Assembly (NCBI GenBank): GCA_027485835.1
Contig: JAIXQG010000002.1
Span: 880,681 to 944,680, forward strand
DNA from: Alphaproteobacteria bacterium
GTDB lineage: Bacteria; Pseudomonadota; Alphaproteobacteria; UBA2136; UBA6156
Direction of reading: 5' to 3'
DNA length: 64,000 nt
Shown: positions 14,462 to 50,190 of the stretch, one piece after another
How positions within the stretch are numbered: position 1 is the first letter of the stretch
Layout: every line of letters starts with the position of its first letter
Made by a program: the position numbers and the translations under genes
Notes under the pieces: generated by a model
The model's input: the letters and a program-made list of their open reading frames with translations, nothing else
Database searches by the model: none
What the model was told of the DNA's origin: nothing

Positions 14462-15115
14462 CGGGAGGTGCCTGACATGAACGGCGCTTCCCCTCCAAGC
14501 GTACCTGCGCACGTGTTTAACAGCCACCGCACGCTGCTGTTGAATGCCGATTATTCTCCCTTTAGTTACCCGCTGGAGCCGCTGAACGCGGAAGATACGA
14601 TTAAGGGCCTGTGTTTGGGCCGTTATGTGGTGGTGGAGTGGAGCGAGACGTTTGCGCATAGCCCGAGTTTGGAAATGCGGTTACCGAGCGTGGTGGCGGT
14701 GAAGGAGTATGTGACCGATGCGGGGCTGTATGGGGTGCCTGCGTGTAATATCGGGAACCTTTACGTGCGGGATAAGGGCCTGTGCCAGTACACGGGGCGG
14801 GAGCTGAAGCTGCATGGCGCAGGGACGCATACGCTGGCGACGATGGACCATGTGATCCCCAAAAGCCGGGGCGGGTTGCTGACGTGGGAGAATACCGTGT
14901 TGGCCAGCCAATACGCCAACAATGCCAAGGGCGATAAAAGCCTGAAGGATTTTGGGATGCCGCTGCTAAACACGCCGTGGGTGCCGCGGGGGGGGGATTT
15001 GCTGTACTTGTGGCTGACCGAAGAGCGTTTGGCCAGTTTGCCGCAAACGTGGCATGCGTTTTTGCAGGTGGTGCCGACACCTGCGCTGCGGCGGGTTTTG
15101 GAGGCGGCGGCGTAA
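14462..15115 (+). CDS. HNH endonuclease-domain protein
   Basis: DHVIPKSRGG..TWEN ... NNAKGDKSL HNH motif. Native-like codon usage. Confidence 0.7.
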   Translation, partial: REVPDMNGASPPSVPAHVFNSHRTLLLNADYSPFSYPLEPLNAEDTIKGLCLGRYVVVEWSETFAHSPSLEMRLPSVVAVKEYVTDAGLYGVPACNIGNLYVRDKGLCQYTGRELKLHGAGTHTLATMDHVIPKSRGGLLTWENTVLASQYANNAKGDKSLKDFGMPLLNTPWVPRGGDLLYLWLTEERLASLPQTWHAFLQVVPTPALRRVLEAAA

Positions 15116-17393: not shown

Positions 17394-17900
17394 ATGGCGG
17401 GTGTCGGGCGGACGATTATTTTAGGGCTCGACCCCGGGCTGGAGCATACCGGTTACGGTGTGATTGCTGTGGAAGGGAACCGCCATACCTTTATGGCGGC
17501 GGGGCGTGTGACGACCAAGGCCAGTGACCCGATACCCCTGCGGTTGGCGCAGTTGGCGGCGGGGATTGGTGAGGTTATTAAGGTGTATTCTCCGACCGAG
17601 GCGGCGGTGGAAGAGGTGTTTGTGAATGTGAATGCCCGCAGCAGCCTGAAATTGGGCCAGGCGCGTGGCGTGAGCCTGTTGGTGCCGAGCCAGCACGGGT
17701 TACCGGTGCATGAGTATGCGGCGCGGCTGGTGAAGCAGTCGGTAGTTGGCAAAGGTGGCGCCGAGAAAACGCAGGTGGCGCATATGGTGGGCGTGTTGTT
17801 GCCCGGCTGTGGCAAGTTGCCGGCCGATGCGACCGATGCACTGGCCGTGGCGCTGACGCATGCGCATCATCGGACATTTGCGCGGGTGTTGGCGGGCTAA
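17394..17900 (+). CDS. ruvC: Holliday junction resolvase RuvC
   Basis: ILGLDPGLEHTGYGVI. Confidence 0.9.
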   Translation: MAGVGRTIILGLDPGLEHTGYGVIAVEGNRHTFMAAGRVTTKASDPIPLRLAQLAAGIGEVIKVYSPTEAAVEEVFVNVNARSSLKLGQARGVSLLVPSQHGLPVHEYAARLVKQSVVGKGGAEKTQVAHMVGVLLPGCGKLPADATDALAVALTHAHHRTFARVLAG

Positions 17901-17919
17901 AAGCCTGTATTTAAGAATA

Positions 17920-17953
17920 AAAAAACGCACGTCTGGGGGACGTGCGTTTTTTC
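17920..17953 (+). terminator. Rho-independent terminator after ruvC
   Basis: aacgcacgtctgggggacgtgcgtttttt. Confidence 0.7.
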
Positions 17954-17959
17954 GGCTGA

Positions 17960-18200
17960 AAAGGTCACGGGGACACAACCTTTTCAGAATACAGGCCGAC
18001 GGGCCCTTTTGGGGGAAAGGTATTGGGCGGGGCTTCCAATAACCCGTCGGTTGCTTGGTGCGGCGGCACCAAACGGGGCGAGAAGGAGGTCCAGGAGATG
18101 CGGCGGACCTAGCACCTCCTTCTCGGGGAGTTACACGACACAGAGGCACGAGGAACCTCTTTTGATGTGTTGTGCGGTCTCCCAAAGGGAACAAAATTAT
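17960..18200 (+). ncRNA. Candidate structured RNA or regulatory leader in the 465-bp ruvC-ruvA spacer (speculative)
   Basis: Several extended stems, e.g. gagaaggaggt...acctccttctc (11 bp), ccgacggg...cccgtcgg, ctgaaaaggt...accttttcag. Confidence 0.15.
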
Positions 18201-18274
18201 GATTGTGAATATGTTTATGCGGTGTTCCTGCTTAAATAATTAAGCAACTATGTGTTGCAGGCTGTATAATGAAG

Positions 18275-18283
18275 TTATCCACA
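18275..18283 (+). promoter_or_regulatory. Perfect DnaA box TTATCCACA just downstream of a TATAAT -10-like hexamer (18265-18270) upstream of ruvA
   Basis: Exact motif match. Confidence 0.45.
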
Positions 18284-18365
18284 GGCGTCAAGTGGAGCCA
18301 AGCGGCTTTTTTACGAAAATGTGGGAATTCGTTGTCTCTTGCGTTAGTTGTGGTAGCTTTAGGGC

Positions 18366-18959
18366 ATGATTTCCCTTCTCTCGGGCCCCGTGTTGGCCGT
18401 TACCTCGACCTCTGCCATTATTGACTGTGCCGGTGTGGGCTATGAGGCCTTGTGCACCACCCGTACGCTGGCGACGCTGACAAGTGGCCAACCTGCCCGT
18501 GTGTTTACGGTTTTGAACGTGCGTGAAGATGCCTTGACACTGTTTGGATTTGCGACGGTGGAGGAGCGGAGCTTCTTCAACCAGTTAACCAGTGTGAGCG
18601 GGGTGGGGCCGAAGTTGGCGTTGTCGCTGCTTTCTAGTTTTTCTCCGGCGGAAGTGCAGCAGGCGATCAGCTTGAACCAGCCCGCGACTTTGGCGCGTGC
18701 GAGTGGTGTGGGCAAGCGCATGGCGGAGAAGATTATCGTCGAGCTGAAGGACAAGTTGGGCAAGATTACCGAGTTTGGTCCGCTGGGCGTGGCGGCGCAG
18801 GGCGCGGTGGCGATGCAAGCGGCGGATTTGGCCTCGGCGCTCATTAACCTTGGGTACCAGCCGAAGATTGCCGAAAGTGCCGCGACCGAGGCGTTGAAGG
18901 CCAACCCGAGTGCGCCGTTTGAGGAGTTGTTCAGGTTGGCGTTGCGTAAAGCTGCATAG
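18366..18959 (+). CDS. ruvA: Holliday junction DNA helicase RuvA
   Basis: MISLLSGPV...VGYE...GVGPKLALSLLS. Confidence 0.9.
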   Translation: MISLLSGPVLAVTSTSAIIDCAGVGYEALCTTRTLATLTSGQPARVFTVLNVREDALTLFGFATVEERSFFNQLTSVSGVGPKLALSLLSSFSPAEVQQAISLNQPATLARASGVGKRMAEKIIVELKDKLGKITEFGPLGVAAQGAVAMQAADLASALINLGYQPKIAESAATEALKANPSAPFEELFRLALRKAA

Positions 18960-19001: not shown

Positions 19002-19694
19002 ATGAAATTACAGTATTTGGGGCACAGTGGTTTCCGGCTGGAAGATGGAAGCTTTACGTTGTTGGTGGACCCGTTTTTGACGGGGAGCCACACCGCACCG
19101 ATGGAGTGGGAGAAAGCGGCAAAAGACGTGACCCATGTGGTGCTGACCCATGGCCATAGCGACCATGTGGGCGATACGGTGGCGATTGCGAAGGCGAATG
19201 ATATTCCGGTAGTGGCGATGGTGGAGCTGGCGCGTTGGTTGGGCCGCAGAGGTGTGACGGATACGATTGAGGCGAATTTTGGCGGCACGGTAGCGTTGGG
19301 CCATGGTGTGAGCGTGACGCTGGTACCGGCATGGCACACCAGTGCGAGTGATGAGGGTGAGTATTTGGGAGAACCGGCCGGGCTGGTGATTACCATGAGT
19401 AACACCACGATTTACCACGCCGGTGATACCGCGATTTTTGGCGATATGGCTTTAATTGATGAGCTGTATAAGCCCGATGTGGTGCTGTTGCCGATTGGCG
19501 GGACCTACACCATGGATGCCAAAACGGCGGCGATTGCGGCGGAGAAGTATTTTAAAAAGGCCAAGGTTGTGCCGATGCACTATGCGACCTTCCCCGTACT
19601 GGCGCCGGATTGCGACGTGTTTATGGCGGAATGCGAGCGTCGCGGTGTAGAGGCGCATCCACTGAAACCCGGTGACGTGATGCAGTTGGCTTAA
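19002..19694 (+). CDS. Metal-dependent hydrolase, beta-lactamase fold (UPF0173 family)
   Basis: MKLQYLGHSGF...THGHSDHVGD. Confidence 0.8.
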   Translation: MKLQYLGHSGFRLEDGSFTLLVDPFLTGSHTAPMEWEKAAKDVTHVVLTHGHSDHVGDTVAIAKANDIPVVAMVELARWLGRRGVTDTIEANFGGTVALGHGVSVTLVPAWHTSASDEGEYLGEPAGLVITMSNTTIYHAGDTAIFGDMALIDELYKPDVVLLPIGGTYTMDAKTAAIAAEKYFKKAKVVPMHYATFPVLAPDCDVFMAECERRGVEAHPLKPGDVMQLA

Positions 19695-19713: not shown

Positions 19714-19744
19714 AAGGCGCCACCTTCGGGTGGCGTTTTTTTGG
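19714..19744 (+). terminator. Rho-independent terminator
   Basis: gcgccaccttcgggtggcgttttttt. Confidence 0.7.
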
Positions 19745-19799: not shown

Positions 19800-20804
19800 A
19801 TGAGCGAACCGTTGCTGTCTCCCTTATTGTCTCCTGTGGCGTTACCTGAAGAACAGCAGGTGGACCATGCGTTGCGTCCACAGAGTTTGGCGGATTTTAC
19901 CGGTCAGCCGGAATTATGCGATAACCTGCAGGTGTTTATTGCCAGTGCCAAGGCGCGTGGCGGAGCGTTGGATCATGTGTTGCTGGCGGGGCCTCCGGGC
20001 TTGGGCAAGACCAGTTTGGCGCATATTCTGGCAAAGGAGTTGGGGGTGGGATTCCGCTCTACCAGCGGGCCGGTGATTGCCAAGGGCGGCGATTTGGCGG
20101 CGATTTTGACCAGTTTGCAGCCGCATGACGTGCTGTTTATCGATGAAATTCACCGTTTGAGTACCAGTGTGGAAGAAGTGCTGTACTCGGCGATGGAAGA
20201 CTTCAAGCTGGATATTATCATAGGCGAGGGGCCTGCGGCGCGGACGGTGCGGGTGGATATTCCGCCGTTTACACTTGTGGGCGCTACGACGCGGGCGGGG
20301 ATGCTGAGCAACCCGTTGCGTGACCGTTTTGGGGTGCATGGGCGGTTAGAGTTTTACACGGCCCCTGATTTGCAACGGATTGTGAGTCGTGCGGCGCATT
20401 TGCTGGGCGTGCCGATTGCCGACGATGCGGCGACCGAACTGGCGGCACGCAGCCGTGGCACGCCGCGGATTGCCAACCGCCTGCTGCGCCGTGTGCGTGA
20501 TTTTGCCACCGTGGCCGGTGAGACGGCACTTAACCTTGCGACAACGCGCCATGCGCTGATGCGGCTGGGTGTGGATGGTATTGGCTTGGATAAGAATGAC
20601 CTGCGTTACTTGCAGGCTTTGGTGAACAAGTTTGCCGGTGGGCCGGTGGGGCTTGGCACCTTGGCGGCGAGCACCGGTGAGAGCGAGGATACGCTGGAAG
20701 ATATGGTGGAGCCGTATTTGTTGCAGTTGGGGTTTGTGCAGCGGACGCCGAGAGGGCGGGTGGCGACCGAGGCGGGGACGCGGCACGTGCTGACGGGGGA
20801 ATAG
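19800..20804 (+). CDS. ruvB: Holliday junction DNA helicase RuvB
   Basis: [12 protein letters not shown] ... [11 protein letters not shown]. Confidence 0.95.
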
Positions 20805-20836
20805 AAAAAGGCGCCGGAGACCGGCGCCTTTTCGTT
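20804..20836. terminator. Bidirectional hairpin terminator, copy 1 of the repeated palindrome ggcgccggagaccggcgcc
   Basis: Hairpin flanked by an A-run and a T-run. Identical to the copy at 21743-21773. Confidence 0.7.
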
Positions 20837-20846
20837 TCAGAGGAGT

Positions 20847-21662
20847 TCAGACGTGAATCTGAAGTGTGCATGCCAGAGGTGGCAGGGGTTCGTTTGTTTC
20901 AATGTTGATAGGCTCGTTTTCGTCATGTCGGCGGGCATCGATGATGCGGTGATGCACTCCCATAAATTTCGAAAGTTCGCCGTTGGCCGTGTGCCACTTC
21001 AAGATGAGCTTGAAGTTACCATCCGGCATATTCTGCACTGTGAGCGTGCAGGTGTCGTTTTCACGGTCGGCATGCAGGATATGGACCACGAGTTGCAGAG
21101 GGAACTTCTGCAGTTCGACGGTATAGACCGGCATAGATTGCTTTCTGTTTTCAGCGGCTTGGGCCGCCTTGGCCGCAACCTTATCGAAGTGCAGGCGCAG
21201 CTTGCCGAGGCGTTCTGCAGAGCTGCCCTCGACATAGGTTTCTGGCGTAAGTGGCTCTTTCCATTCGATCTCGTCGTCGGAGTCGCGCGGAAAGGTGAAG
21301 TATTCCATGAAGGCGAACCAATTGTGCCAGCCGTGGTGAAAGGGTACCCAGACATGTGAGTATTCTCCGCTGCCCATGCTTTTGGAAGCAAAGATAGCGG
21401 TGCATTCGGCGAGTTGGCCGAGTTCATCCATCAGGGCACTTAAGCTGATTTCGCCATCCTGTTTGAGGGGATTGTAAAATGCTTCCAGGCTATCGGCGAT
21501 GCAGCGTTGAAAGTCGGTCTCGCAGGATTTGCCTGCCAGAACGTGATTCAGATTTTCGAGGAAGAGGGTGAAGTCTTCGTCACTGCAGTAGGCCGGATTT
21601 TCGGGGCGGAGTTCTTCGGCTTCGAAACAAATGACGGGGAGGGTGATGTGAGTGTCGGTCAT
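20847..21662 (-). CDS. Hypothetical protein (271 aa), low GC3, likely horizontally acquired
   Basis: Long ORF. Codon usage rich in AAT/GAT/TTT, unlike neighbours. Confidence 0.5.
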   Translation of the reverse strand: MTDTHITLPVICFEAEELRPENPAYCSDEDFTLFLENLNHVLAGKSCETDFQRCIADSLEAFYNPLKQDGEISLSALMDELGQLAECTAIFASKSMGSGEYSHVWVPFHHGWHNWFAFMEYFTFPRDSDDEIEWKEPLTPETYVEGSSAERLGKLRLHFDKVAAKAAQAAENRKQSMPVYTVELQKFPLQLVVHILHADRENDTCTLTVQNMPDGNFKLILKWHTANGELSKFMGVHHRIIDARRHDENEPINIETNEPLPPLACTLQIHV

Positions 21663-21740
21663 GGTGGTGCTCCTCTGAACAGACCGGGAAGTTAAAAAAA
21701 ATGGCTCGTGATTTTTGTATACCTATAGGTGGTGGGGAGC

Positions 21741-21774
21741 AAGAAAAAAGGCGCCGGAGACCGGCGCCTTTTTG
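21741..21774. terminator. Hairpin terminator, copy 2 of the ggcgccggagaccggcgcc palindrome
   Basis: gcaagaaaaaaggcgccggagaccggcgccttttt. Confidence 0.7.
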
Positions 21775-21789
21775 CGTGTGGGAGTGGTA

Positions 21790-22163
21790 TCAGCCTTTCA
21801 GGTAGCTGATGAAGAAGGGATCGGCTTCGGCGATACCGAGGGTAATGAGCGCTACGTAGACTAGTTTGCAGAGGATGTGCAGGATCTGGTCGGTGTGGAA
21901 GCCGAAGCGACCATCGTTTTTGCCGTAGTCGATGGCGGTATGGAGCACGAACTCGATCAGCGCCAGCGCGAAGTTGCCGGTGATGAGCCAGACGACGCCT
22001 GCGTGGGGCAGGGTGTGGCCGGTGAGGTTCCAGCCCCAGATGGTTTCCGGGATGTGCTCGAATTTCTTTTTGTGCGATTTGTAGATTGCGATGAATTCGT
22101 ACTGGTTGAAGTCGATGAAGGTGTGTCCGATAAGCAGGGCGAAGAGGAGTTGGATCTCAAACA
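21790..22163 (-). CDS. Small integral membrane protein (possibly DUF3307-like), hypothetical
   Basis: ORF with good RBS GGAGAAACCGAG before the ATG. Hydrophobic. Confidence 0.45.
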
Positions 22164-22219
22164 TCTCGGTTTCTCCTGTGGATAGTATCCTCTGTATACG
22201 TGGATGGTGGGATGCTTGC

Positions 22220-22253
22220 AAGAAAAAGGCGCCGCGGGGTGCGGCGCCTTTTA
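22220..22253. terminator. Hairpin terminator, variant copy 3 (ggcgccgcggggtgcggcgcc)
   Basis: gcaagaaaaaggcgccgcggggtgcggcgcctttt. Confidence 0.65.
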
Positions 22254-22277
22254 AGGTTGTCGTTCGAAGAATAGCGC

Positions 22278-23057
22278 TCAGGCTGTTTTTTGGGCCGGAG
22301 CGGTGAGGAGAGGGAGGTCGAGGGTCAGTGTGCCGAAGGCTTGGCAGCGTGCAATAAGCTCCTCTGTCCGAAAAGACGGATTCACTTTTGTAGTGATACT
22401 GCTCCAGCGAAACTTTACCTCGTAACCACTGGACGCGTCCCGATGAAACGGGGAGAGTCCGACGTAGGCCACACCTGTTTCGAGCTGAATGCTGAAATTC
22501 ATGTTACCTTCTTCTAAGCCTGCTCTCAGGGCGGAGCTAGAAGACAGACATATGAAATCTCCGTTGTCTGCACATTCCCGTATCATTTTGTAGTGCCAGC
22601 AAAGCCATTCCACAAGTAGATCGAAAAGCTCGTGAGGAGTCGTGCCGAAGTGATTCAGCATGAAGGGATCGATGGTCTTTATGTGGTCACCTGTTGCGAG
22701 TGCCGCGAGATGCGGTATCGCCGGATGAATCCCTTTTGCGTGATCAATCCGCCAGTTCTGGGTGAGAGTACCTTCTGCCATACGACCTTTGTAGATGCTC
22801 TGCGCATAAAGGGCGAGGTAGGCGATGAGAGTCTTGAGTTCTTGGCGTGTGATTTCGCCGCTATTGTAGAGGCTCCAGTAGCTGTTGTTACGCTCCTTGA
22901 TATAGAATTCGCCTGACTTTCGCAGTTCGTTCCGCAAGGTCCTGACGGCGGATGTTGCCGTAGCTGGTGCTACGCCGTTAGTGCGGAGAATCTCCGTGAG
23001 ATCCTTAATCAGGATTTCCGTTTTACGGGAGCGTTCTTCAAAAATTGCGTCGCCCAT
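22278..23057 (-). CDS. Hypothetical protein (259 aa) with a possible N-terminal HTH-like region
   Basis: ORF. Low GC3. Confidence 0.5.
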   Translation of the reverse strand: MGDAIFEERSRKTEILIKDLTEILRTNGVAPATATSAVRTLRNELRKSGEFYIKERNNSYWSLYNSGEITRQELKTLIAYLALYAQSIYKGRMAEGTLTQNWRIDHAKGIHPAIPHLAALATGDHIKTIDPFMLNHFGTTPHELFDLLVEWLCWHYKMIRECADNGDFICLSSSSALRAGLEEGNMNFSIQLETGVAYVGLSPFHRDASSGYEVKFRWSSITTKVNPSFRTEELIARCQAFGTLTLDLPLLTAPAQKTA

Positions 23058-23206
23058 GGGAGCGCCTTTCTGGACTATGCCGGTTAGGAATGAAGAGATT
23101 ACGAGATACTGCTTTGGGCGTGGTTTTAGGCGGAAGTTGCTGGTTTGGCAAGGAAAAGCATAAAGAAAAGCCCCTGTGACAGGGGCTTTGCAAGGTGGGC
23201 GTTAGC

Positions 23207-23950
23207 CTAGTTTTGGCTACCGATGGCTTTTTGTACGGCGCGGGTGCGGGAGTACAACGGAGTTTCATCGGTCATTTCGCCTTCGGTTACGGCGGGGATG
23301 GCGATCTTGCGGGTGGTCATCCAGCTGTTGATGGCGATGGTGGCCATTTGGCGCATGGTCTTCTCAGCAGCGTCGCCCTTTTTACGCTTGAGGGCGCCGA
23401 GCAGGGTGATGAGGTGGGTGTTCAGTTCCTTCTTCTGGCCGACAGAGGTTGCCCAGAGTTCAGACATGTTGGTGCGTCGCTTCACCATGCTGATAGCTTC
23501 GGACACGGTCGGGCTGAAGGCGGTCTTTTCCATCATTTCCAGAGCGATTTCCAGCGATTGCAGGTATTGGGTGCTTTGGAGAGAATCGTCTTGGGCAAAG
23601 GCGAAGGCGGTTTCGAGGTCCATCAGGGCTTCGATGCTGGCTTTTTCAGCGGCCAGTTTGGCAGCGAGGCCGAGGAACAGGCTGTAGGATTGCAGCTGGT
23701 CTACCTTGGTGCTGGTGGGGACGTGGGTGACGAAGGCACCGCGGTGGGGAACCATTTCGACCAGACCGTCGGCAGCGAGGGCGCACAGAGCTTCACGCAC
23801 CGGAGTACGGGACACGTTGTAGTCCTTGCTGATCTTCAGCTCGGACAGGTGGAAGCCACCATCCAGTTCACCATTGAGGATTTTGTCGCGGAGGGATTCG
23901 CGGACCATGGTGTCGAGATTGCTGTGTTGAGTCGTCATCTGCTTGCTCAT
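23207..23950 (-). CDS. GntR-family transcriptional regulator (FadR-like C-terminal domain)
   Basis: N-terminal wHTH ...SELKISKDYNVSRTPVREALCALAADGLVEMVPHRGAFV. Confidence 0.8.
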   Translation of the reverse strand: MSKQMTTQHSNLDTMVRESLRDKILNGELDGGFHLSELKISKDYNVSRTPVREALCALAADGLVEMVPHRGAFVTHVPTSTKVDQLQSYSLFLGLAAKLAAEKASIEALMDLETAFAFAQDDSLQSTQYLQSLEIALEMMEKTAFSPTVSEAISMVKRRTNMSELWATSVGQKKELNTHLITLLGALKRKKGDAAEKTMRQMATIAINSWMTTRKIAIPAVTEGEMTDETPLYSRTRAVQKAIGSQN

Positions 23951-24238
23951 TTCTGTTCGTCTTTCCCCTGTGGTTTTTATTATTCTGTTTTTTTATCAGG
24001 CGGGGCCACGGCACGGTGGATACCATTCGGGCCCTGTATTGGCTGCAACCTGCCATGCCTTTTCCTTAGGGTCAAGGGCTAAGTATACATATTGGGCAGC
24101 GAAAGATGCTTTTGCACGCAATTCTGTTTTTATCATATCTTTTAGTTGTGATGTTTAGGTGGCAGAGGGTTAGCACGAGTGGACTTGAACCCTGCATAGG
24201 CCATGCGTTTTGATGTTGGTTGGCCTATACTTTATGCT

Positions 24239-24742
24239 ATGCAGCGCTATATTGCCCTTGGATGTTGGATGACCTTTGCCACGGTAGCCGCCGTGCGTGC
24301 CCAAACGAATGAATGTGTTCCGCCGGATGCGGGGCTTGCGATTGCTGGGGCTGTACGGGATTTTAAACTGCCGCCGTCTCCGGCGTGTGTGGCTGCCGAT
24401 TATAGCCATAGCTACGGGCCGATTATTGATTACGAGGCTGCGACAAGGCCTGCCGCTGCTGCGCCGGCCACCCCAGCCGCACCCGCTGCGGTGCCGCAAG
24501 TACAACGCCCGCAGCCGACCGGGCCGGTACTGGGGGCGGGTGAAGGCATGGATTTATATGACCTTGAGGCAGGTACGGGAGGCAGTGCGACCCAGTATAA
24601 TGGCCGCGAGCTGGAGCGTTTAGGCCAACTGGATGCCATGCAGGGCAAACCCCTTAATATGGACCATGCCAGCGATATTAACTATGTGCGCGGTTACACC
24701 AAGGGTAACGAACGCCGGACGATGCCGACACCTTGGCGGTAG
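24239..24742 (+). CDS. Secreted hypothetical protein with an Ala/Pro-rich segment
   Basis: Signal peptide MQRYIALGCWMTFATVAAVRAQT. Confidence 0.4.
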   Translation: MQRYIALGCWMTFATVAAVRAQTNECVPPDAGLAIAGAVRDFKLPPSPACVAADYSHSYGPIIDYEAATRPAAAAPATPAAPAAVPQVQRPQPTGPVLGAGEGMDLYDLEAGTGGSATQYNGRELERLGQLDAMQGKPLNMDHASDINYVRGYTKGNERRTMPTPWR

Positions 24743-24845: not shown

Positions 24846-25469
24846 ATGATGCACGCAACCCGTACCCGTATGACCGGCCTTATGCTTGCCATGGCATTGG
24901 TTGTGGCGCCTGTAGCCGAGAGTTATGCCTTAACCGCCGCCGACTATAGTACCAGAAACCCGGGCTATGGCATGGACATGGCCAGTGTGATTGATGCGCA
25001 GAGTATGATTAGTGCGATGTCTCTGGCGCAGGCGAACGGGTTTAATATTCAGGGTTTGGCTTCAGCCAGTTTGGGCAGCATGATTGGCAGTGCCGTGACC
25101 AATGCCATGGGCATTGATGGCGTGCTGGGAGGAGTTGTGCAGGGCGTGATTACGGCCGGTGTGATGCAGGGGCTTGATAAGTTGAGTGCCGGCGGCAGCA
25201 TGGGGAATTTTGGGGGGTTGCTGAGTGCCTCGCTCAGCAGTGCATTGCTGCAGCAAGGCGGTATGCAGGGTGCTTTTGCGACAGCCAGCAATTCGTTTGG
25301 AGGTTCGTCCAATTCTATTCTGACGGCAGCGGTGAGCTCTGGTGCGCAGGCGGCGCTGGGTGCTGCGAGCAGTGGTTCCGGCAGTAATATGATTCAGACC
25401 GTGGCGACTGCGGCGGTTGTCGGTGGGATTCAGGGGGCCGTGGCTAATACGGCGAGTTTGACGCAGTAA
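24846..25469 (+). CDS. Secreted Gly/Ser/Ala/Met/Gln-rich low-complexity protein
   Basis: Signal peptide. Repetitive GGxxQG / SxxLSSALLQQGGMQG composition. Confidence 0.5.
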   Translation: MMHATRTRMTGLMLAMALVVAPVAESYALTAADYSTRNPGYGMDMASVIDAQSMISAMSLAQANGFNIQGLASASLGSMIGSAVTNAMGIDGVLGGVVQGVITAGVMQGLDKLSAGGSMGNFGGLLSASLSSALLQQGGMQGAFATASNSFGGSSNSILTAAVSSGAQAALGAASSGSGSNMIQTVATAAVVGGIQGAVANTASLTQ

Positions 25470-31072: not shown

Positions 31073-32017
31073 ATGGCTGCAACGCCTGTTATGTTGGAAG
31101 AGGCGGCGCGCGAGTGGCGGGCTTATACGGAGTATCTGACCGTGATGAAGGGGGCGAGCCCGAACACGGTGGCGGCCTATGGCCGCGATATTAAGGATTT
31201 TTTAAGCTACGTGCAGACCGTGCCTGCGGAGGTAAGTGTTGCGGATGTGGAAGGTTGGATGGTAAGGCTTTCCAAAAACGAAAACGGTGCGCGTAGCGTG
31301 GCGCGGAAATTGAGTGCCGTGCGTGGCTTTTACCGGTTTTTGATGGAGCGCGGCTGGGCGAAAGATGACCCGACGGAGACGGTACCTTTACCGAAACTGC
31401 CGCAAACACTGCCGAAGGCGTTGAGTGTTGCCGATGTGAAAAAGCTGTTGCTGGCGCCGTTGGGTAGTACGCCCGCGGAAGTGCGGTTGCGGCTGATCAT
31501 TCAGCTTTTGTACGCGACCGGCTTGCGGGTGAGTGAGCTGTGTAACTTGACGCTGGATGCGGTGGCGGATGGCGATGGCGTTGTGCTGCGTGTGACGGGG
31601 AAGGGTGGCAAAACCCGCATGGTGCCGCTGGGTGATGTGGCGGCGCATACGTTGCGGGGCTATTTGAATGATGCGCGCCCGAAAATGCGCGGCAGCACCG
31701 GCCAGTGGGTATTTGCTAGCCCCGATGGGCACACGCCGCTGACGCGGGTGCGGGTGTTTCAGCTTTTAAAGGAGGCGGGGCAACGCGTGGGGGTGGAGGT
31801 GGCGCCGCACCACCTGCGCCACACCTTTGCGACCCACCTGCTGCAAAATGATGCGGATTTACGCGCGGTTCAGGTTATGTTAGGACATGCCAGCTTGAAC
31901 ACGACGCAGATATATACGAAAGTCGCCGGTGAGCGATTGAGAGAGACCTTGGAAAAACATCACCCCCTGAGTAATTCTAAGCTGGGCGCGGCCTCCAAAC
32001 GGAGTGGCACGCGCTAA
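31073..32017 (+). CDS. xerD: Tyrosine recombinase XerD
   Basis: HHLRHTFATHLL...LGHASLNTTQIYT. Confidence 0.9.
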   Translation: MAATPVMLEEAAREWRAYTEYLTVMKGASPNTVAAYGRDIKDFLSYVQTVPAEVSVADVEGWMVRLSKNENGARSVARKLSAVRGFYRFLMERGWAKDDPTETVPLPKLPQTLPKALSVADVKKLLLAPLGSTPAEVRLRLIIQLLYATGLRVSELCNLTLDAVADGDGVVLRVTGKGGKTRMVPLGDVAAHTLRGYLNDARPKMRGSTGQWVFASPDGHTPLTRVRVFQLLKEAGQRVGVEVAPHHLRHTFATHLLQNDADLRAVQVMLGHASLNTTQIYTKVAGERLRETLEKHHPLSNSKLGAASKRSGTR

Positions 32018-33428: not shown

Positions 33429-33454
33429 CAAAACCGGCTGGAGCCGGTTTTTTT
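33429..33454. terminator. Bidirectional hairpin terminator
   Basis: aaaaccggctggagccggttttttt. Confidence 0.65.
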
Positions 33455-33459
33455 AGGAG

Positions 33460-33684
33460 TTAGGCTTTGCTGGGGTGGTATTCGAAGCGGACTTTTTGGC
33501 CGGCGATTTTGATTTTTTCCGGGAGATTGGCCGCTGTGGGGTTTGGGAGGAAGATATTAAGGACGGGGAGACCGTTTACTTCGGTTAGCTCGTAGCCCGT
33601 GTGGTCGGGAAAGAGGGGCGTGAGGCGCTCGGCGACGAAGTCGGCCTTTTTAATGGCGGCGCTTACTTTGGATGTGATTGTCAT
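33460..33684 (-). CDS. Hypothetical small protein (74 aa)
   Basis: ORF with C-ending codon usage. Confidence 0.35.
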   Translation of the reverse strand: MTITSKVSAAIKKADFVAERLTPLFPDHTGYELTEVNGLPVLNIFLPNPTAANLPEKIKIAGQKVRFEYHPSKA

Positions 33685-33728
33685 GAGAGGGATATAGGCA
33701 TCTTTTGATGTGTGTGCAAGTGAAACGC

Positions 33729-33755
33729 AAAAACCGGCTTTAGGAGCCGGTTTTT
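33729..33755. terminator. Bidirectional hairpin terminator
   Basis: aaaaccggctttaggagccggttttt. Confidence 0.6.
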
Positions 33756-33772
33756 GGGAGTTTGGGTTTAGG

Positions 33773-34276
33773 TTAGGCGGCTTTGCTGCTGGTGCTGGAC
33801 ATCAGCGGTTCGAGCGTGCCTTCGGATTGCATGGCGTCTTTCACCTTTTGGGGGATCGGGTACAGCGTACCTTCGCCTTCCAGCATGCGCTTGCCTTCAG
33901 AATCTTCCACCCAGGTTTCGAAGATACAGAACTTTTCGGCGACTTCCTTGCAGCGGGCGATGGCGGTGTAGGGTGTGTTCAGCTTCACCGGAGCGAGGAA
34001 CTTGGCGGTTTGGGCGCCCCAGATGGCACCGAGGCCGGGGAGGTCCATACCGAAAATACCGGAGAATTTGGCGACGGAGATCATGCCGTGGGCGATACGG
34101 CCGCGGAAGACGGTTTTGCTGGCGTAGTCGTCGTTGAAGTGGGCAGGGTTGAAGTCGCCGCTGATTTCCGCGAACTTTTGCACGTCGGCATCGGTCACTT
34201 GGTAGGTCTGGCGGATTTCGTCGCCGACCTTGATTTCGGCCAAAGACTTACAGCCGCGGGGCTTGGGGTTGGTCAT
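33773..34276 (-). CDS. MaoC-like (R)-specific enoyl-CoA hydratase/dehydratase
   Basis: Hot-dog fold motifs ...FAEISGDFNPAHFND... Confidence 0.85.
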   Translation of the reverse strand: MTNPKPRGCKSLAEIKVGDEIRQTYQVTDADVQKFAEISGDFNPAHFNDDYASKTVFRGRIAHGMISVAKFSGIFGMDLPGLGAIWGAQTAKFLAPVKLNTPYTAIARCKEVAEKFCIFETWVEDSEGKRMLEGEGTLYPIPQKVKDAMQSEGTLEPLMSSTSSKAA

Positions 34277-50159: not shown

Positions 50160-50190
50160 TCAAAAAAAATGGCCACCCGAAGGTGGCCGA
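50160..50190 (-). terminator. Rho-independent terminator for the upstream small gene
   Basis: ggccaccttcgggtggcc hairpin plus T-run on the minus strand. Confidence 0.65.

Follow-up and report, generated by a model that had tools for sequence, protein, structure and literature searches.

A variable gene array between gntR and ruvB in an alphaproteobacterial lineage, with a predicted terminator and a promoter-like element at each unit

Introduction

A phage moron is a gene flanked by a sigma-70-like promoter and, at its other end, by a factor-independent terminator (PMC3714127). Here, we describe a chromosomal locus with a comparable layout. Three minus-strand open reading frames, coding for proteins of 271, 124 and 259 amino acids, lie between the 3′ end of ruvB and a gene for a GntR-family regulator, in a 64,000 nt long stretch of alphaproteobacterial DNA (the window). 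An initial annotation described the locus as a set of individually terminated gene units. This layout is right, and in addition each gene is preceded by a promoter-like element of its own, joined to the predicted terminator before it. The observation could be partly confirmed. Its interpretation is partly supported, in layout and accessory nature but not in the horizontal acquisition of a module. We favor, with moderate confidence, a lineage-specific variable array that evolves in place, with units duplicating and being deleted, and that is probably controlled by GntR, over an imported low-GC island.

Results

Gene content of the locus

All three minus-strand genes reported downstream of ruvB are present with the lengths given above, and the regulator gene indeed lies immediately upstream of them. 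Related loci are designated by L numbers, L002 being that of the sister species.

19800–20804, plus strand: ruvB, 334 aa; convergent with the array, stop codon abutting hairpin h1
20847–21662, minus strand: P1, 271 aa, soluble and acidic; by profile comparison a divergent paralog of the P3 family
21790–22164, minus strand: gene for a small membrane protein with DUF3307, 124 aa; start codon ATG at 22164, preceded by a GGAG ribosome-binding site
22278–23057, minus strand: P3, 259 aa; the member that defines, within this window, a hyper-divergent family restricted to one clade and always located downstream of gntR
23207–23950, minus strand: GntR-family regulator; immediately upstream of the array, 95% identical to its L002 counterpart

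RuvB has the domains RuvB_N, AAA and WHD_RuvB and is 94–95% identical to the L002 protein. The 124-aa protein matches Pfam DUF3307 (PF11750; 26.6 bits at a cut-off of 23, positions 1–108 of 127 in the profile) and phrog_2470 (E = 1.1e-16). It contains three hydrophobic segments and is 74% identical to its L002 counterpart; tblastn found related sequences in 151 phage records (best identity 49.5%). It is the sole array unit with relatives outside the locus, and those are in phages. The three proteins had been reported to lack recognizable domains, which does not apply to this one and holds for P1 and P3, for which Pfam, NCBIfam, PHROGs, PADLOC and PDB sequences gave no match. PADLOC returned no family at E ≤ 0.1 with eight P3-family members, nor at E ≤ 1 with P1 and P3.

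P1 and P3 form a clade-restricted family

Profile methods identify the 271-aa and 259-aa proteins as remote paralogs, both belonging to a new clade-restricted family of soluble proteins. Comparison of P1 with the P3 family by hhalign gave a probability of 96.6% (E = 6.4e-10). A P3-family HMM run against 959 ORF segments retrieved all three P1 proteins with E values of 3e-12 to 5e-8, the next best hit having 0.62. In a shuffle control, P1 proteins scored 19–30 bits, and none of 900 shuffled sequences exceeded 5.7 bits. Identity between P1 and P3 is about 17%; the relationship comes from profile methods applied to a small number of sequences, with AlphaFold models (pLDDT 42 and 50) too poor to confirm a common fold. 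According to alignments, HMM scores and gene context, members of the family are about 260–280 aa long and located next to gntR; we propose GEIS-x2-L...G-x5-W-x-P-x1-3-GWH and (Y/F)(R/K)L-x3-W-(H/N)-T as family motifs.

Only three P1 homologues were found among 5.8 billion proteins; the P3 family was recovered by profile search. Neither protein has relatives outside this locus in sets of 5.8 billion and 1.8 billion proteins or in phage records, and a search of IMG/VR with P1 yielded none. Pairwise identity of P3 between genomes is 23–46%, while the flanking genes of the same genomes are 88–96% identical. Between the sister species, the three array genes are 26%, 74% and 75% identical, compared to 82–96% for the flanks. 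The dN/dS ratios are 0.10 for P1, 0.23 for the DUF3307 gene and 0.24 for two closely related P3 genes (gntR: 0.05). The array genes are thus under purifying selection and therefore real. The extreme divergence of P3 might speculatively be taken as a sign that the protein takes part in a conflict or an interaction.

Base composition is native

The initial annotation had ascribed to the three genes an AT3-rich codon usage unlike that of their neighbors. GC3 is 0.64 for P1, 0.81 for the DUF3307 gene and 0.58 for P3 (35th, 92nd and 12th percentile of the 60 window genes); ruvB has 0.68 and the window a mean of 0.68 with a standard deviation of 0.08. Codon usage is likewise unremarkable, with distances at the 22nd, 87th and 57th percentile of the same 60 genes. 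Only total GC is mildly low in the array (0.52–0.55 vs. 0.58). The apparent low-GC3 island, judged by eye, was thus not real. Neither an integrase, a tRNA nor a direct repeat marking an island boundary was found at the array, and the whole 64 kb contains no tRNA. The nearest and only tyrosine recombinase gene (31073–32017) is 8 kb away. Its product fits the XerD/XerC-type model (314 vs. 279 bits) and fails the integron-integrase (IntI) model (114 bits at a cut-off of 265).

Gene order is conserved and unit content varies

The order gntR-P3-DUF3307-P1-ruvB is kept in L002–L004, so that the genes occur in conserved synteny with native codon usage. Nine related loci extend to this point, and in eight of them the gene after gntR is of the P3 type. 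Among these is the distant relative L112, with rpoZ and not ruvB as the next gene. Judged from this gene order, the association of gntR with a P3-type gene is old. Outgroups do not have the three genes at these places: ruvB is followed by tolQRAB in L007, and gntR by rpoZ in L094.

Content between P3 and ruvB differs. L006 has P3 and P1, L093 P3 and the DUF3307 gene, and L089/L090 and L092 only P3; L087 combines P3 with an unrelated orphan gene of 249 aa. Some or all of the DUF3307 gene and P1 are thus missing from L006, L087, L089 and L092, where P3 is present. The distribution is patchy when set against the similarity of the ruvB 3′ ends (330 nt, a weak proxy), and most of the relatives are metagenomic contigs of 1–5 kb. 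The array is accessory: number and identity of the units between gntR/P3 and ruvB vary among close relatives.

Hairpins at the unit boundaries

Each gene had been described as being followed by the same hairpin. We found three such hairpins, two of them identical over 28 of 28 nucleotides including loop and flanks, and the third a variant with the shared GGCGCCG stem. A different hairpin follows gntR.

20805–20832, no strand assigned: h1 (AAAAAGGCGCCGGAGACCGGCGCCTTTT), common to ruvB and P1; probably bidirectional predicted intrinsic terminator
21745–21773, no strand assigned: h2, 28/28 nt identical to h1; predicted terminator of the DUF3307 gene
22224–22252, no strand assigned: h3 (GGCGCCGC-GGGGT-GCGGCGCC, flanked by an A and a T run); predicted P3 terminator
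23167–23189, no strand assigned: h4 (AAAGCCCCTGTGACAGGGGCTTT); predicted gntR terminator, stem differing from h1–h3, kept in relatives

With their A/T runs, h1–h3 are perfect palindromes of 27–29 nt, with perfect G+C-rich stems of 7–8 bp (12–13 bp including flanking A/T pairs) and loops of 3–5 nt. On the minus strand, each starts 1–25 nt past the stop codon of its gene; on the plus strand, h1 directly adjoins that of ruvB. Folding energies lie between −22 and −24 kcal/mol and z scores between −2.9 and −6.1; h1 has −22.3 kcal/mol on the minus and −24.2 kcal/mol on the plus strand, with z near −5. Since A4–6 and T4–6 runs flank all three hairpins, termination in both directions, as proposed initially, is plausible; however, the U-tracts are short (canonical: 7–9 nt), with 4–6 T per strand and T-rich sequence beyond. 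A generic terminator scan that requires five T in eight nucleotides did not call h1–h3.

The 19-nt palindrome occurs in the 64 kb as two exact copies and one variant, all at this locus, and GGCGCCG-N3-9-CGGCGCC three times (0.04 expected). All hairpins of the window with a GGCGCCG stem are consecutive. The scan covered 64 kb of the genome, whose size is at least 1 Mb, plus the 20-kb loci of relatives, which contain no copy elsewhere. In all DNA scanned, the palindrome is confined to this locus and does not behave as a generic terminator of the genome. Hairpins consisting of A-run, GC stem and T-run are the general terminator style here (about 20 in the window), and two terminators 30 kb apart have a 16-nt core in common.

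The GGCGCC stem is kept at every unit boundary across seven related loci, with genome-specific loops. The h3 stem is found at the orthologous position in L002, L006, L087 and L093, and the h1 sequence also at the ruvB stop in L089/L090. The hairpins flanking P1 resemble each other within the window and within L002, where they share a genome-specific loop.

Promoter-like modules and a candidate GntR box

Upstream of each gene, the T-tract of the predicted terminator abuts a candidate promoter of the form CTTGY-N16-18-TATACA (TAAAAC for P3).

21716–21749, minus strand: P1 promoter-like module; T-run, CTTGCT (21743–21738), 16-nt spacer, TATACA (21721–21716) inside a GTATAC box
22193–22227, minus strand: DUF3307 promoter-like module; T-run, CTTGCA (22222–22217), 18-nt spacer, TATACA (22198–22193) inside a GTATAC box
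23123–23157, minus strand: P3 promoter-like module; T-run, CTTGCC (23152–23147), 18-nt spacer, TAAAAC (23128–23123)
24071–24094, minus strand: GTATAC-centred 16-nt box (24079–24094) immediately 5′ of CTTGAC (24076–24071); candidate GntR operator and gntR promoter

The pattern TTTT-N0-3-CTTGY-N15-19-TAWAMH is present three times in 64 kb, where 0.03 occurrences are expected, and only upstream of P3, the DUF3307 gene and P1. The generic scan did not call these elements either. The terminator-promoter geometry recurs in L002, L006, L093 and L087 (for the P1 module, in L002 and L006), and the P3 module is kept in L002, L087, L089, L091 and L092. Likeness among the units runs about 35 nt past the hairpin into the promoter (TTTTTCTTGC...CCACC...GTATACA). 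CTTG-N17-20-TATAC is found at two further places in the window.

The regulator has an N-terminal winged helix-turn-helix GntR domain (PF00392, E = 1.9e-15, positions 4–64 of 64). Past residue 74, no Pfam match to an effector domain (FCD, UTRA or other) was found, and NCBIfam matches cover only the N-terminal 100–130 residues, with scores far under the cut-offs. Operators of the FadR and HutC subfamilies are of the GT...AC type. The GTATAC box upstream of gntR is near-identical in the window, L002, L091, L092, L112 and L094, and reappears in the array promoters; three of the five GTATAC sites in the 64 kb are within this locus. TATACA may also simply be the −10 hexamer.

Discussion

Proposed organization and history of the array

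A sigma-70-type promoter (CTTGY, 16–18 nt, TATACA or TAAAAC) would begin right at the T-run of the preceding terminator, followed by a short leader that contains a GGAG ribosome-binding site, the gene and a G+C-rich hairpin that would stop transcription; the ruvB-proximal hairpin h1 would end both convergent genes. P1 probably arose when a gene unit was duplicated as a whole, terminator and promoter module included. This duplication would be the main reason why the hairpin recurs behind every gene. Gene conversion might later have homogenized h1 and h2 within a genome; alternatively, their identity could stem from duplication at insertion. The DUF3307 gene would be a moron-like unit in the array, of a type common in phages. 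Recombination between the directly repeated terminator-promoter modules may lead to loss or gain of units, which would explain why close relatives have one, two or three of them. GntR probably binds the GTATAC-centred boxes, located at its own promoter and at the −10 elements of P1 and the DUF3307 gene; since the candidate boxes overlap these −10 elements, it would repress the two genes.

One could go further and regard P3 and P1 as the variable parts of a hitherto undescribed GntR-controlled conflict or interaction system (defence, exclusion or prey/host interaction in a Micavibrio-like lineage) with diversifying allele turnover. The modules would then serve as recombination joints that swap self-expressing units, the phage-derived DUF3307 gene included, in an integrase-free analogue of a cassette array. 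This extension is speculative and in our view improbable.

Alternative explanations

The hairpins might resemble each other without common history, as convergent, independently formed terminators (A-run, GGCGCC stem, T-run) behind three unrelated hypothetical genes. Several observations fit this. Such hairpins are the general style of the genome, with about 20 in the window; GGCGCC is self-complementary, so that two copies form a stem; and a hairpin with a GGCGCCGG stem is found at an unrelated site in L094. The 16-nt core shared by two distant terminators indicates that terminator similarity can arise by convergence, and without h1–h3, neighboring terminators are no more similar than random pairs (p = 0.43). 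We nevertheless consider convergence unlikely, given the identity of h1 and h2 in loop and flanks, the consecutive position of all GGCGCCG-stem hairpins of the window, the likeness extending about 35 nt into the promoter, the homology of P1 and P3, and the genome-specific loop that is again common to the P1-flanking hairpins of L002. Still less likely are recombination sites or small mobile palindromes (integron attC-like, REP/BIME-like or Xer-site-like) that capture and excise cassettes, and among the alternatives we give this the least credit. In favor of this, one palindrome of roughly 28 nt recurs at the borders of every variable unit, the difference between empty and filled loci (L006 or L089 compared to the window) is exactly one unit with one hairpin, and the P1-flanking copies are identical within and different between genomes, like a duplicated target or att core. 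Yet no integron integrase was found (the only candidate fails the IntI model), the short perfect palindromes are not the 57–141-nt imperfect attC sites with GTTRRRY cores, the units carry promoter-like elements, and the three copies in 64 kb are all here, while beyond the array the 20-kb loci of relatives have none. The hairpin sequence is also unlike the consensus of dif-type Xer sites. Homologous recombination between repeats is enough for the pattern.

Recent horizontal acquisition of a three-gene islet of foreign cassettes downstream of ruvB, as proposed by the initial annotation, would fit the low identity of the array genes between sister species compared to the flanks, the differing content of relatives, the absence of all three genes at ruvB or gntR in the nearest outgroups, the phage homologues of the DUF3307 protein and the slightly low total GC. 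Against it stand native GC3 and codon usage, the gene order kept in L002, a recombinase that is XerD/C-type and 8 kb away, and the absence of an integrase, tRNA or direct-repeat boundary. Moreover, the link between P3 and gntR is old and extends to a distant relative, and with P1 and P3 having no relatives outside the locus in protein sets, phage records or (P1) IMG/VR, no donor pool is visible. The paralogy of P1 and P3 points to duplication in situ rather than import of a three-gene module. Acquisition is therefore an improbable explanation, and the array evolving in place remains our preferred one.

If this is true, the locus is a compact natural case of accessory genes packaged as self-sufficient promoter-gene-terminator units, in which duplicating units with their terminators makes repeats that then drive gene gain and loss between close relatives. 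The new P3/P1 family is limited to an alphaproteobacterial clade with sparse sampling. It shows tight linkage to one conserved gntR gene and a divergence about ten times as fast as that of the neighboring genes. This combination of features often marks genes of biological conflict; practical impact is small for now.

Comparison with known systems

The array is ordinary in kind. As with intrinsic terminators in general, G+C-rich stems follow the stop codons, T-runs are present on both strands and h1 lies between convergent genes; the predicted T-runs of h1–h3 are short, however (4–6 nt), and one stem sequence across three neighbors is not general in the window. REP/BIME repeats differ by having dispersed copies, whereas the three in 64 kb are all at this locus. 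Integron cassette arrays likewise consist of co-oriented single-gene units, each with a 3′ palindrome and varying in number between relatives, but here there is no IntI, no attI or attC and no common Pc promoter, each unit having a promoter-like element instead. Autoregulated GntR regulons share the winged-helix GntR domain and a conserved palindromic GT-N-AC-type box at their own and neighboring promoters. Here, the C-terminal domain has no Pfam match and the putative target genes are orphans, so that no ligand or pathway can be proposed. Tandem paralogs by a conserved regulator, copy-number variation, 23–46% identity and purifying selection are reminiscent of polymorphic immunity/effector arrays; the locus differs in that no toxin, secretion or defence component was found with PADLOC and Pfam and that the P3/P1 family is limited to one narrow alphaproteobacterial clade. 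Unlike phage morons, the array is chromosomal, between gntR and ruvB, without surrounding prophage or compositional deviation, and P1 and P3 are without phage relatives. It shares with them a promoter-like element and a predicted terminator per gene and units that are present or absent between collinear relatives, and its DUF3307 protein matches phrog_2470, which PHROGs places in the class "moron, auxiliary metabolic gene and host takeover".

Gene layout and base composition

In this uncultured alphaproteobacterium three minus-strand ORFs lie downstream of ruvB, each followed by a hairpin and with a GntR-family gene as neighbour, all as described in the initial annotation:

19800-20804, plus strand: ruvB
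20805-20832: hairpin h1, 3′ of P1; identical to h2 in 28 of 28 nt (AAAAAGGCGCCGGAGACCGGCGCCTTTT)
20847-21662, minus strand: P1 ORF, 271 aa
21745-21773: hairpin h2, 3′ of the DUF3307 gene; identical to h1 in 28 of 28 nt (AAAAAGGCGCCGGAGACCGGCGCCTTTT)
21790-22164, minus strand: DUF3307 ORF, 124 aa
22224-22252: hairpin h3, 3′ of P3; GGCGCCG stem as in h1 and h2, one pair longer, other loop
22278-23057, minus strand: P3 ORF, 259 aa
23207-23950: GntR-family gene, next after P3

The low GC3 claimed for all three genes was not confirmed: their values (P1 0.64, 35th percentile; 124-aa gene 0.81, 92nd percentile; P3 0.58, 12th percentile) are within the spread of 60 window genes (mean 0.68, sd 0.08; ruvB 0.68), and none of the three stands out in codon-usage distance. 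Modular, variable units are supported, an imported island is not.

GC skew is never negative in any 500-nt segment of the window (1-64000), whatever the gene orientation; it is mostly +0.1 to +0.4, with one segment at 0, which makes the strand asymmetry unusually strong and uniform. Neither a tRNA gene nor an Rfam family reaching gathering score was found in the 64 kb. The ruv cluster is broken up: between ruvC and ruvA lie about 460 bp in which no gene is called (17900-18366) and which contain a minus-strand CTTGAC-N-TATAC promoter-like site (18264-18292), and a metallo-beta-lactamase-fold gene is located between ruvA and ruvB (19002-19694), a placement kept as far as L007, the closest ruvB outgroup. 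A stand-alone HNH protein of 212 aa (14477-15115) is weakly similar to the Cas9 HNH domain. A further small indel separates the window from the sister species (L002) at this point: beside the HNH gene L002 carries an additional 253-aa gene (16550-17311 of L002) that the window lacks.

P1 and P3 are predicted paralogs

The key new result is that P1 is, judged by profile comparison, a paralog of P3. Alignment of the two small families with hhalign gave 96.6% probability (E 6.4e-10). The P3-family HMM matched all three P1 proteins with E 3e-12 to 5e-8 among 959 ORF segments, in which the strongest decoy had E 0.62; the alignment spans up to positions 9-230 of 262, and the P1 proteins reached 19-30 bits versus at most 5.7 bits in 900 shuffled controls. 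Common to both proteins are the motifs GEIS..L, W.P..GWH and (Y/F)(R/K)L...W(H/N)T.

Only three P1 homologues were found among 5.8 billion proteins. The first P3 search returned the self-match alone; a profile built from two P3 proteins then found five clear new members and one distant member in 1.8 billion representatives. P3 proteins are only 23-46% identical in pairwise comparisons; across the same relatives RuvB and GntR are mostly 88-95% identical (L087 GntR: 80% over a 49-residue C-terminal fragment). The statement that P1 and P3 have no known domain was upheld, since profile searches of Pfam, NCBIfam, PADLOC, PHROGs and PDB sequences with P1, P3 and the eight-member family gave noise only. 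The family likewise matched no known defence system, and its AlphaFold models were too poor for use. A phage origin was rejected for both proteins, as tblastn against 50,697 phage records gave no match; for P1 no relatives were found in IMG/VR either, a scan that covers P1 alone because the P3 alignment is too divergent. P1 and P3 appear to form a new clade-restricted paralog family.

The middle gene encodes a DUF3307 protein

The 124-aa protein, previously also described as lacking recognisable domains, scores above threshold against Pfam DUF3307 and matches phrog_2470 with E 1e-16. It has three hydrophobic segments. With tblastn it matched 151 phage records, the top match being Sulfitobacter temperate phages (49.5% identity). 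In the literature we found a single passing mention of DUF3307.

Gene content and gene order in relatives

Gene content between gntR and ruvB.
Window, L002 (sister species): P3, DUF3307, P1
L006: P3, P1
L087: P3, unrelated 249-aa orphan
L089/L090, L092: P3 alone
L093: P3, DUF3307 after gntR, then end of contig

The sister MAG GCA_005768725.1 (L002), with RuvB and GntR about 95% identical to those of the window, keeps the order gntR-P3-DUF3307-P1-ruvB. The three array genes are 26%, 74% and 75% identical between the two, versus 82-96% for flanking genes. Despite this divergence they are real genes: P1 has a dN/dS of 0.10 and the DUF3307 gene one of 0.23, versus 0.02-0.19 in the flanks.

Distribution of the units is patchy against ruvB 3′-end similarity: L089 is the closest relative of the window by this measure (89% nt), yet contains only P3. 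In L087 the slot of DUF3307 and P1, between P3 and ruvB, is filled by the 249-aa gene (1228-1977), which is unrelated to P1, matches nothing in Pfam and comes with its own CTTGTA-N17-TATACC promoter-like site and GGCGCC hairpin.

A P3-type gene directly follows gntR on every contig of the profile-found P3 members. In the distant L112 rpoZ instead of ruvB comes next, in L094 rpoZ follows gntR directly, and in L007 ruvB is followed by tolQRAB. These gene orders suggest that gntR-P3 is an old pair, and that its move beside ruvB would have come later by rearrangement. In a ruvB scan of GTDB species (REPRESENTATIVES), whose scanned set excluded the source genome and the sister species, the nearest match, at 78% RuvB identity, shows this ruvB-tolQRAB order.

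Two ORFs divergent from gntR (24203-24742 and 24846-25469) encode Gly/Ser/Ala-rich proteins with signal-peptide-like N-termini and no Pfam match. Compared with the sister species their identity is only 63-69%, at dN/dS of 0.17-0.19, and their linkage to gntR is kept even in the distant L094 and L112.

Each gene ends in a terminator-like hairpin

The pattern GGCGCCG-N3-9-CGGCGCC (also written AAAAGGCGCCG-N3-9-CGGCGCCTTTT) occurs three times in 64 kb versus 0.04 expected, and the three sites are h1-h3; the suggested check for further palindrome copies revealed none besides these in the window. Stabilities are -22 to -24 kcal/mol, with z down to -6. A and T runs flank all three on both sides, so h1 could serve ruvB and P1 alike. 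Their T-runs span just 4-6 nt, and none of the three was listed by a generic terminator scan; we therefore consider h1-h3 putative terminators, judged by position and form. Rfam gave sub-threshold matches only at h2, to terminator ends of sRNA models.

At seven related loci a hairpin with A-run, GGCGCC stem and T-run is located at every unit boundary, with genome-specific loops. In the window h1 and h2 share a GGTCTCC core (minus strand) and h3 has the loop ACCCC; in L002 h1 and h2 are near-identical (loop TACTCA) and h3 has CCCT. Both hairpins of L006 have GGCGCCGC stems, the sole hairpin of L089 is identical to h1/h2 of the window, and in L112 GGCGCC hairpins putatively also terminate the GntR and P3-like genes.

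On a smaller scale, neighbouring co-directional genes that share one terminator-like hairpin recur at 33430-33756. There, near-identical hairpins (33430-33451 and 33728-33756; AAAACCGGC...GCCGGTTTT) flank a 74-aa minus-strand ORF (33460-33684), with a 167-aa ORF (33773-34276) as upstream neighbour on the same strand.

Promoter-like modules and a candidate GntR box

Upstream of P1 and the DUF3307 gene the T-run of the preceding terminator adjoins CTTGY, with TATACA 16-18 nt further on; P3 has the same design with TAAAAC instead. The window has three matches to TTTT-N0-3-CTTGY-N15-19-TAWAMH, precisely at P3, DUF3307 and P1, versus 0.03 expected, and the geometry is kept in relatives. The DUF3307 and P1 modules are alike for about 35 nt past the hairpin (TTTTTCTTGC..CCACC..GTATACA), which indicates that the repeated unit extends past the hairpin and comprises terminator and promoter together.

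Of the five GTATAC sites in the 64 kb, three are at this locus. The third locus copy sits in a 16-nt box, CTAAGTATACATATTG, adjoining CTTGAC upstream of gntR (24071-24094). Almost invariant in six genomes, distant ones included (window, L002, L091, L092, L112, L094), box and CTTGAC are likely candidates for the GntR operator and promoter. A conserved CCATGGCA(G/A)GTTGC follows about 20 nt downstream; a -10 element is not obvious in the candidate promoter. We put the odds at slightly under even that this box serves as the GntR operator and that GntR also controls P1 and DUF3307, through the GTATAC boxes over their -10 elements. Alternatively, TATACA is just a -10 hexamer; CTTG-N17-20-TATAC is also found at two other intergenic sites of the window and looks like an ordinary housekeeping promoter type.

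A possible history of the array

Because P1 and P3 are homologous, the simplest history would have three steps. A P3 unit would have been duplicated along with its terminator-promoter module, a phage-type DUF3307 unit would then have been inserted, and nearby copies would have been homogenised, with deletions through recombination between direct repeats. Loss as well as gain, and conversion as well as duplication at insertion, are compatible with it.

The hairpins might instead have become alike through convergence alone. Non-neighbouring terminators of this genome can look alike, since two terminator-like hairpins 30 kb apart (19718-19735 and 50171-50188) have a 16-nt core, CCACC-TTCG-GGTGG, in common in opposite orientation. 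Moreover, neighbouring terminators show no general resemblance once h1-h3 are set aside: in a permutation test p was 0.04 with the three hairpins and 0.43 without them, and genome-wide likeness of neighbours was rejected because the significance comes from h1-h3 themselves. Against convergence, the likeness extends beyond the hairpin, and P1 and P3 are probable paralogs. We regard convergence alone as unlikely but not negligible, and favour the duplication history.

Comparison with known systems

In general kind the locus is a known one, a small array that appears to remodel itself. Integron cassettes were rejected, as IntI and attC are missing and each unit has its own promoter-like element. 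REP-like dispersed repeats were rejected within the DNA scanned, where the palindrome is confined to the locus, and a reading of the hairpins as Xer sites was rejected as well. Phage morons are defined as units with a sigma-70-like promoter at one end and, at the opposite end, a factor-independent terminator (PMC3714127). Whereas the array differs from morons in being chromosomal, without a prophage, and of native composition, its units, with their predicted promoters and terminators, fit this definition and are present or absent between collinear relatives.
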